From the NCBI RefSeq assembly GCF_044704955.1, contig NC_091977.1, positions 542,376,001 to 542,440,000 of the forward strand: DNA of 64,000 bases. Reading direction: 5' to 3'. This document shows positions 47,292-49,679 of this stretch, piece by piece (the first letter of the stretch is position 1; each line of letters begins with the position of its first letter). The notes beneath the pieces are model-generated. The model saw nothing but the letters and a program-made list of their open reading frames with translations. It did not search any database and was not told where the DNA came from. The DNA comes from Pristiophorus japonicus (Eukaryota). A program made the position numbers and the translations under genes.

Positions 47292-47792
47292 TTAGAAGCA
47301 CTTGCGGTGGACTATGGAGGGCCCAGACTCATCCTATTCCTGCTTACTGATCCACATTTGCTGGAAGGTGGAGAGAGAAGCCAAGATGGATCCACACTGA
47401 ATACTTCCTCTCGGGCGGAGCAATGATCTTAATCTTCATTGTGCTCGGAGCCAAGGCTGTGATTTCCTTCTGCATCCGATCAGCGATACCGGGGTACATG
47501 GTGGTTCCACCAGACAAGACCGTGTTGGCGTACAGATCTTTCCTGATGTCTACATCACATTTCATGATGCTGTTGAAACAGGTCCCGTGGAGCCCAGAAG
47601 CTTCCATCCCAATGAAGGAGGGTTGGAAGAGGGTTTCTGGGCATCTGATGACTTGGCCATCAGGGAGCTCGTAACTTTTCTCCAAGGATGAGGAAGAGCC
47701 AGCCGTCTGCATCTCAGATTCAAAATCTAGGGCCACATAGGCAAGTTTCTCCTTGATGTCACGCACGATCTCCCTCTCGGCTGTGGTTGTGA
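47292..47792 (-). pseudogene. Actin D: truncated actin (residues about 201-375) with 21-nt and 8-nt deletions
   Basis: [23 protein letters not shown]..; lacks TIGNERF; frameshift after SVWI; original TAA at 47292-47294. Confidence 0.93.
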
Positions 47793-48171
47793 GGCCTTTC
47801 GAAGAATCCTCCAGCTCTTGCGTCATGTAGGCCGAGGTCAGGTCCAGCTTGGTGTACGTCTTCCCTCCAGCCAGGGTCGCAAATAGGTCGTCGGCCTTGG
47901 GTAGCGGGTACTGGTCCTGTAGCGAAAAACGATTAATCGTTACTTTATAGTCCCCACAAATTCTAAGCGTGCCGTCCTCTTTTAAGGACGACAATCGGAC
48001 TGGCCCACTCGTTGAATTCCACCGGCACTGCAGCCTGTCCAGCTCAATTTCCACTTTCACACGCATCATATACGGTACCACCCGTGCCTTGTGGTGGATG
48101 GGTCGCGTACCGGGAACCAAATGGATCTGCACTTTCGCCCCCGAGAAGCTTCCAATGCCTGGCTTGAACAA
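47344..48171 (-). other. Chimeric open frame: Gypsy RT N-terminal part fused to actin C-terminal half
   Basis: ..[33 protein letters not shown].. in a single 275-codon frame. Confidence 0.9.
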
Positions 48172-49679
48172 TGATGGAAACCTGCTTGGAACCTGGGCAC
48201 GAGGTCATCGACGGACGAGCGCGCTCGGATGTCATCCCAGTTTCAGCGGATTTTTCCCAGACAGCTTCTGCCAAACAATACGGGGCCATCCCCTGGCACA
48301 ATCCACAGCGGGCATTCGTGTACTGCTCCATCATAGGAGACCTTGACTTCTGCACTGCCAATTTCAGGGATTAGTTCCTTGGTGTAAGTCCTTAGTTTGG
48401 TATGAATGGGGCTGAGCTTGGGCCTGTGTGCCTATTTGCCCCACAGCCTGTTGAAGGCCTTTTTACTCATTATGGACTGACTCGCACCCGTGTCCAGTTC
48501 CATAGATACTGGAATTCCGTTCAGTTCAACCTTCAACATTATTGATGGTGAATGTGTGTGCCCCGTATTTTTCTGCCTCCTCGGTACGAGTCTCCAAGTC
48601 AGCCTGATCCACAGTGGATCGATCTTCCTCTGCAACATGGTGGTTTGCAGGGTTTACAGCTCACCTGCACATTCGCTGGAGGTGTCCCATTGTTCTGCAG
48701 TCGTTGCACACATAGAGCTTGAAGCGGCATTGATGGGGCCGATGATCACCTCCATAACGCCAACAAGGTGTTAACTGCCTCACATTAATGATTGATGGCG
48801 GACTCTGGGTCATCTGAGGTCGGGCAGCAGTAGCCGGTGTGTACGTTCTGCCGTGTATATTCCTGCTCGAGACCGACGTTACTTTGTGCACAGTACTGGC
48901 CGAAACCTCTTTACTCTGCGAAATCTGTTTGGTGTGGTCGCTGGTGGACATAAATGTCTGGGCCATCGTTATGGCTTTACTTAGATTTGGAGTTTCAACA
49001 AACAACAGTTTGCGAAGGATTACCTCATGGCCAATGCCCAGTACAAAAAAGTCTCGAAGCAGTTGTTCCAGGAATCCCTCAAACTCACAATGTCCTGTGA
49101 GGCGCCTTAGTTTGGTGACACAGCTCGCCACTTCCTGGCCCTCCGACCGTTGACACGTGTAGAACCGATATCTCGCCATCAAAACGCTTTCCTTAGGATT
49201 TAGGTGCTCCCGGACCAGCGTACACAGTTCTTCAAAGAATTTAGCTGTTGGTTTTACCGGAGCTAGGAGATTCTTCATGAGGCCATAGGTTGTTGCCCCA
49301 GAGAGCAAGGAGGATCGCCCTTCATTTGGCAGCGTTCTCATTCCCTTCCAGCTCACAAATATTGTTAGAGTCTCTCCACGAAGGCCTCCCAATCATCCCC
49401 TTCTGAGAACTTCTCCAGGATACCAACTGTTCTTTGCATTTTCGTGCGGCTGTTCATTACCTCGTCGCCAATTGTTACACTCATAATAAAGGCTGAAACT
49501 GCGTACTAGGAACAAGGAGCAAATGTGACCTTAGCTCTTTTAATAAGACTCCAGGTACGTCATGGGTGGCCTGCTTATATACAGTGATCCCAAGGGATGC
49601 TGGGATCCCTTGGGACTCCCAACAGGTAGGCCCTCGGGTGGTGGTGTAATACAGGTTACAAGGGGTTAAATACATAACA
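47789..49679 (-). mobile_element. Truncated Gypsy (5' LTR 49473-49679, PBS, gag, protease, start of RT); paralog of 21320-23186
   Basis: Reverse-complement match, including the same CR1 insertion flank. Confidence 0.92.

Follow-up and report, generated by a model that had tools for sequence, protein, structure and literature searches.

The 64-kb window analysed here, by which we mean the whole repeat-rich stretch of Pristiophorus japonicus DNA with a CR1-like LINE landscape reminiscent of a cartilaginous fish, contains three intact actin genes (A, B and C) and a partial fourth copy (D), the latter joined to a truncated Gypsy retrotransposon that lies downstream of gene C. We consider this locus to be probably, with a probability of about 0.75, a neutral relic of a microhomology-mediated DNA rearrangement within a dynamic cluster of single-intron actin genes. 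The first-pass annotation had drawn attention to it as a 275-codon frame fusing the reverse transcriptase (RT) of the retrotransposon to actin from T201 at a 4-bp TCAC microhomology; the frame is present on the minus strand of the assembly and the microhomology is seen in the alignments (Table 1). The actin part runs from T201 (beta-actin numbering) to I341, and when the last 132 aa of the frame were compared with longer proteins (8000 candidates scored), all of the best 120 of 7967 matches were actins, with a top identity of 88%, and no RT domain occurred among these 120. The frame is open because both halves are coding DNA and join in frame, as one join in three would; a microhomology of at least 4 bp has a chance of 0.016 under random joining. 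Its start does not depend on the TTG from which it was originally read, with in-frame ATGs standing at 48069 (241 aa), 48066 and 47826. A literature search of titles and abstract openings, with most subscription journals outside its coverage, returned no description of an RT-actin chimera or of the present actin cluster.

Table 1. Positions of the features discussed, numbered from the first nucleotide of the window.
Feature	Position	Strand	Remarks
Actin gene A	17120-19688	+	ATG 17120; intact, 376 codons
Sister unit	17120-25750	+	Actin gene A (17120-19688), CR1 spacer, longer Gypsy copy
Sister Gypsy	21320-~25750	+	RT, RNase H, integrase; 3' LTR from 25547
Actin gene B	36212-30798	-	ATG 36212; intact, 376 codons
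Assembly gap	45435-45634		200 N; 2.2 kb from junction 1, 1.6 kb from junction 2
Flank X	46740-47267		528 nt, unique in the window
Junction 2 (47268/47267)	47264-47283	-	Within a 7-bp inverted repeat, the last 4 nt of which are not in the intact copies
Actin fragment D	47268-47792	-	T201 to stop plus 24 nt of 3' UTR
Chimeric open frame	47344-48204	-	286 codons stop-to-stop (48204-47347) plus stop; TTG 48171 opens 275
Junction 1, Gypsy RT/actin	47789-47792	-	4-bp microhomology TCAC
Ty3/Gypsy RT, N-terminal part	47791-48096	-	63% across 110 aa to another RT of the window, which bears PF00078
Aspartic protease region	48207-48566	-	Stop-interrupted; PF13650, E 3e-05, on 48653-48435
Gag body, other frame	48661-49392	-	243 codons, closed by a stop; in-window gag relative at 47%
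Gag start ATG and short frame	49365-49439	-	ATG at 49439; closed after 24 codons by a stop that the sister has at the same position
PBS-like 11-mer	49460-49470	-	Begins 2 nt past the LTR; shares positions with a weak splice-donor-like site
5' LTR of the Gypsy element	49473-49679	-	207 bp, TG...CA ends; sits in a CR1-like LINE remnant
TATA-like box TATATAA in the LTR	49575-49581	-	Consensus match only
Actin gene C, upstream of the chimera	50530-55696	-	Exon 1 55696-55571, exon 2 52344-51340; intact, ATG 55696; 3' UTR with two AATAAA

Judged from its sequence, the transposon half is of Ty3/Gypsy origin, possibly from the Mag-like clade: LTR, PBS, gag, protease and RT follow one another in the order of such elements, and RNase H, integrase and the 3' LTR are added in a longer sister copy behind gene A. 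The LTR with its TATA-like box, the intact PBS and the gag ATG already pointed out all stand upstream of the junction, and in the sister, again as first described, the PBS has decayed and the gag ATG is lacking, a 23-nt gap running across it. The 5' LTR is identical to the 5' LTR of the sister at 201 of 207 positions, compared with 182 matches and 30 mismatches to the sister 3' LTR, and the PBS-like 11-mer, which may be that of tRNA-Ser(GCU), recurs as the identical word in two other LTR elements of the window (at 40598 and 13260). Solo-LTR-like copies of the same family were also observed at about 54015-54245, in the intron of gene C, and at about 34775-34975, in that of gene B. Unlike a complete Ty3/Gypsy retrotransposon, the chimera's copy breaks off within RT, short of the catalytic motifs, and its gag and protease, reported to be frameshifted, carry stops and further changes of frame; the gag body gave no Pfam match. 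The RT part, itself without a PF00078 match, can be aligned with the RT of Ty3, its closest solved structure (E 2.4e-09), and its alignment with the in-window relative stops at residue 135, before the PFG (151) and QDD (179) of that protein, in agreement with the claimed loss of the catalytic DD motif. The RT frameshift said to be compensated here proved to be a lesion common to both copies, the frame of the chimera being restored by an indel pair of net -2 at about 47989-47983. The Gypsy part as a whole differs from the sister by about 3% and, as the lesions common to both copies indicate, belonged to an already decayed element. The last 195 nt of RT are further apart (12/195 differences to the sister against 44/1666 elsewhere in the element, p = 0.013, a post hoc comparison), which is unexplained.

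Comparison with the sister unit bears directly on where the chimera was made. Units A and C, each consisting of an actin gene, a CR1 spacer and an already decayed Gypsy, are collinear over 5.3 kb at 95% (17920-23186 against 53088-47789) and about 3% apart, and the 5' flank of the chimera's element is identical to that of the sister unit at 693 of 726 positions. Since the 5' LTR and this flank are common to the sister unit, the element did not move, and the fusion arose at the existing site once the unit had been duplicated. The seven indels of at least 5 nt that separate units A and C show only short repeats of 0-2 bp. On the side of the sister, the two LTRs of the Gypsy differ at 30 of 212 aligned bases, no target-site duplication was seen and the CR1 interrupted at its 5' end is not resumed past the 3' LTR; recombination between two insertions may have produced this copy.

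Another way of bringing RT and actin together, which we hold to be quite unlikely, is capture at the RNA level, in which the Gypsy RT would have switched from the element RNA to an actin mRNA and the chimeric cDNA would have converted the resident element, or the 3' LTR would have been deleted later. In its favour, the donor gene adjoins the element, divergence is raised just before the junction, and the locus resembles the LTR-mediated retrocopies of Tan et al. 2016 (PMC5131818), as characterized in the part of that study drawn on here, in its sense host-gene fragment fused to a truncated LTR element, the microsimilarity at the 5' junction, the replacement of internal ORFs, the truncation at both the 5' and the 3' end and the lack of a poly(A) tail, with the actin piece placed downstream of a predicted LTR promoter. 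The 4-bp microsimilarity is, however, also expected from DNA repair, and the absence of an L1-type A-tail after the fragment is not diagnostic. In the same part of that study, LTR-element sequence flanks the retrocopies on both sides, whereas the chimera, of which the window holds one copy, has neither a second LTR nor element sequence 3' of the actin piece: a search of 45635-47267 (1.6 kb, up to the assembly gap) for a 3' LTR or pol remnant returned none, the local scores being 20-27 against 216 for a true LTR. Nor is there a new insertion site, the collinearity and the 5' flank described above placing the element at the old one common to the sister. Furthermore, the resident element was already decayed, and the donor region is intronless after codon 42, which leaves no intron whose loss could reveal an mRNA template. 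LTR-type reverse transcription cannot be completed alone by an RNA that has a PBS and neither a 3' LTR nor a polypurine tract. The suggestion that the locus might serve as a transduction substrate is not borne out, the needed 3' parts being absent from the 1.6 kb that separate the actin piece from the gap; the chimera cannot retrotranspose alone.

The origin first proposed, a deletion joining the Gypsy to the next actin copy of a tandem array, stands in that the join is an in-place, microhomology-guided DNA event, but a single clean deletion is insufficient, because it predicts that the 3' UTR of A, B and C continues beyond D, and homology to these three genes stops 24 nt after the stop codon. 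This second breakpoint (47268/47267), missed in the first-pass annotation, leaves D without the 3' UTR of about 800 nt and its two AATAAA signals that A, B and C have in common at about 98% identity. The inverted repeat at this junction recalls snap-back-like synthesis, although it was noticed after the fact and without a chance control. As for the donor, D has 7 mismatches over 499 nt to A (1.4% divergent), 10 to B and 15 to C (3.0%), which rules out a derivation from the neighbouring C. Beyond the breakpoint, none of the 498 31-mers of flank X occurs elsewhere in the window, and the flank gave no LTR, pol, Pfam or Rfam match, its longest minus-strand frame likewise having no Pfam match; the Rfam search of 45635-47267 returned no match, and the two trivial tandem repeats of this region lie outside X. 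When X was aligned to the actin 3' UTR from the junction, its score over 60 nt was reached by 9 of 500 shuffles and over 90 nt by 3 of 500 (post hoc), that over 150 nt by 19 of 500 and that over 300 nt by 57 of 500, and full-length local alignment did not rise above shuffles (73, 236 and 34 of 300 reaching the score). Flank X may be a much diverged paralogous actin UTR, with a sequence likeness that is faint at most over the first 60-90 nt.

From the common flank, the breakpoints and the lesions we infer a repair pathway and an order of events in which either microhomology-mediated end joining or a switch of template would have mended a break or a stalled fork in the Gypsy of unit C. This could have occurred either through a large deletion extending as far as another A-like actin copy, with a 3' flank that would already have been different or would have been lost by a second deletion, or through a 525-nt templated insertion for which an A-like gene served as template, the second switch falling at 47268; the fused piece would then have decayed. 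Microhomology-mediated end joining (MMEJ, or polymerase theta end joining) and the replicative FoSTeS/MMBIR processes are known to generate microhomology-mediated deletions and templated insertions in segmental duplications. The locus resembles such events in its microhomologies of 2-5 bp, the possible snap-back at junction 2, the nearby paralogous template and the clustering of events. In mechanism it does not depart from them; what stands out is that RT and actin happened to be joined in frame.

A junction situated close to the 200-N gap of Table 1, in a near-identical, palindromic cluster whose 8-kb arms have 98% identity, and seen here in the assembled sequence, invites the question of whether it is an artefact of assembly, that is, a chimeric read or a misjoin near a contig end. 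We judge this unlikely. An overlap of 4 bp is far too short to cause a misjoin in overlap-based assemblers, and both halves carry private changes, the Gypsy part being 3% from its sister and D having 4 substitutions and 2 deletions with microhomology; thus, neither half copies another locus of the window. Nine sequencing runs from 4 studies are listed as sharing words of the stretch, 4 of them at 0.51-0.58, which are one sample and may be the source of the assembly, and 5 at 0.05-0.20; no RNA run is among those listed, which speaks neither for nor against expression, and these shares are not readable as support for the junction, since 1168 of the 2931 31-mers of the stretch (40%) also occur in other copies in the window.

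The lesions of D also decide what the frame could encode. The 21-nt actin deletion near 47648, which sits on a 3-bp microhomology (p = 0.051), begins at T249 and removes T249-F255; it keeps the frame, as had been stated. An 8-nt deletion near 47393, on a 5-bp microhomology (p = 0.005), shifts the frame after I341 and adds 14 foreign residues, which accounts for the frameshifted C-terminus of the earlier description. Past this frameshift D also carries a stop at Y362 (47336-47334) that the description did not include. The actin content is therefore T201-I341 less 7 residues, and the N-terminal 200 residues, which in the established structure of actin carry both phosphate-binding loops, are absent. 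As far as can be predicted from the sequence, a functional actin, which needs the complete two-part fold and an undamaged C-terminus, is not encoded. The doubt originally expressed about a functional protein is thus well placed, RT being without its catalytic motifs and actin without its N-terminal 200 residues, 7 core residues and its C-terminus; neither protein can be obtained from the chimera in working form.

Each of the 4 substitutions private to D is missense or nonsense, compared with 6 of 14 in the intact copies; with a neutral share of 78.5%, the intact copies fall below expectation (p = 0.004), indicating purifying selection, and D fits neutrality (p = 0.38), the direct contrast between the two giving a Fisher p of 0.09. 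On the other hand, of the 5 lesions within the frame, 4 leave it open (p = 0.045); with the 2-nt deletion bounding the frame included, the count is 4 of 6 (p = 0.10). The assignment of indels to the chimera lineage rests partly on features of the family sequence.

This tendency to keep the frame would fit an expressed chimera under some selection, with an LTR-driven RNA, possibly spliced from 49460 to just before 47916, that would encode about 198 aa of RT stub and half actin in frame, starting from the ATG at 49484, a reading we regard as very unlikely. The PBS and ATG region is kept here and lost in the sister, the acceptor-like site before 47916 ranks second among 162 AG sites (5.8, against 4.7 for the real actin acceptors, on a rough matrix, as for all splice scores given here) and is in phase 0 with the frame, and the donor follows the ATG at 49484 by 8 codons, likewise in phase 0. 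Yet the donor-like site at 49460 is weak (3.1, against 8.0 for the real actin donors) and only tied for second of 120 GT sites, splicing from the best donor, at 48664 (6.4), would bring in the gag frame in the wrong phase, and both donor- and acceptor-like sites occur in the sister too, as features of the family. The actin part is without 7 core residues and the C-terminus, the private changes are all damaging, and no actin poly(A) signal is left, the first AATAAA following about 615 nt on, in a LINE remnant. Scanning from the LTR, 30 ATGs precede the first in-frame one, which is the 31st counted from 49600. We rate as highly improbable a young transposon-host chimeric gene at birth, in which an LTR-driven RNA spliced past the dead gag and protease would specify a peptide of about 200 aa bearing actin surfaces. 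If it were true, the peptide could interfere with actin-binding proteins, the frame-keeping lesions would record a brief selection, and the product otherwise made by LTR-mediated retroposition would have been reached by an in-place, DNA-level route. Were the chimera expressed and translated, it would show the birth of a chimeric gene, which is rarely seen, and in a protein that is among the most constrained.

POTE-actin is a chimeric gene of fusion origin. Like POTE-actin and ACTBL2, as presented in the part of PMC7870945 considered here, the locus reuses cytoplasmic-actin coding sequence in a new context, but those are near-complete and expressed, whereas in the chimera a transposon stub is followed by no more than the damaged 3' half of an actin, and clear signs of constraint are not seen.

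Genes A, B and C each comprise a 42-codon exon 1 and one 334-codon exon 2, the single coding intron following codon 42. They encode cytoplasmic-type actins in which the C-terminal half has diverged. Vertebrate beta and gamma actin genes have introns near codons 121, 267 and 327, and these are absent from the three genes, which are possibly a partly retro-processed and amplified actin subfamily under purifying selection. Between A and C, the 5' half of exon 2 (51870-52344 against 18684-19158) differs by 0.6%, compared with 2.2-3.4% in all other segments, pointing to conversion between the genes or to strong constraint. The upstream regions of A and B are carried by an 8-kb inverted duplication of 98.2% identity (8440-16489 against 45434-37369), which also carries two other LTR elements; one of its arms stops exactly at the N gap, and order and orientation at that end may be uncertain. 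A 33-bp minisatellite array, differing in copy number, lies upstream of each actin copy (7756-8517, 16102-16555, 36731-37800 and 56450-57760). Elsewhere in the window, a 901-codon open frame at 60274-62979 on the plus strand resembles ORF2 of CR1-type LINEs (endonuclease and RT) and is preceded on its 5' side by a 316-codon ORF1-like frame (59348-60298), the two together forming, as judged by eye, a nearly intact LINE.

As a relic the locus matters little in itself, and the cluster of single-intron, diverging actin genes may merit more attention than the chimera. Nonetheless, it indicates that an LTR-gene chimera with microhomology, capture-like in its look, can form in situ where a tandem gene array contains a transposon. 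Therefore, junctions of this kind need to be examined for element sequence on both flanks and for a new insertion site.
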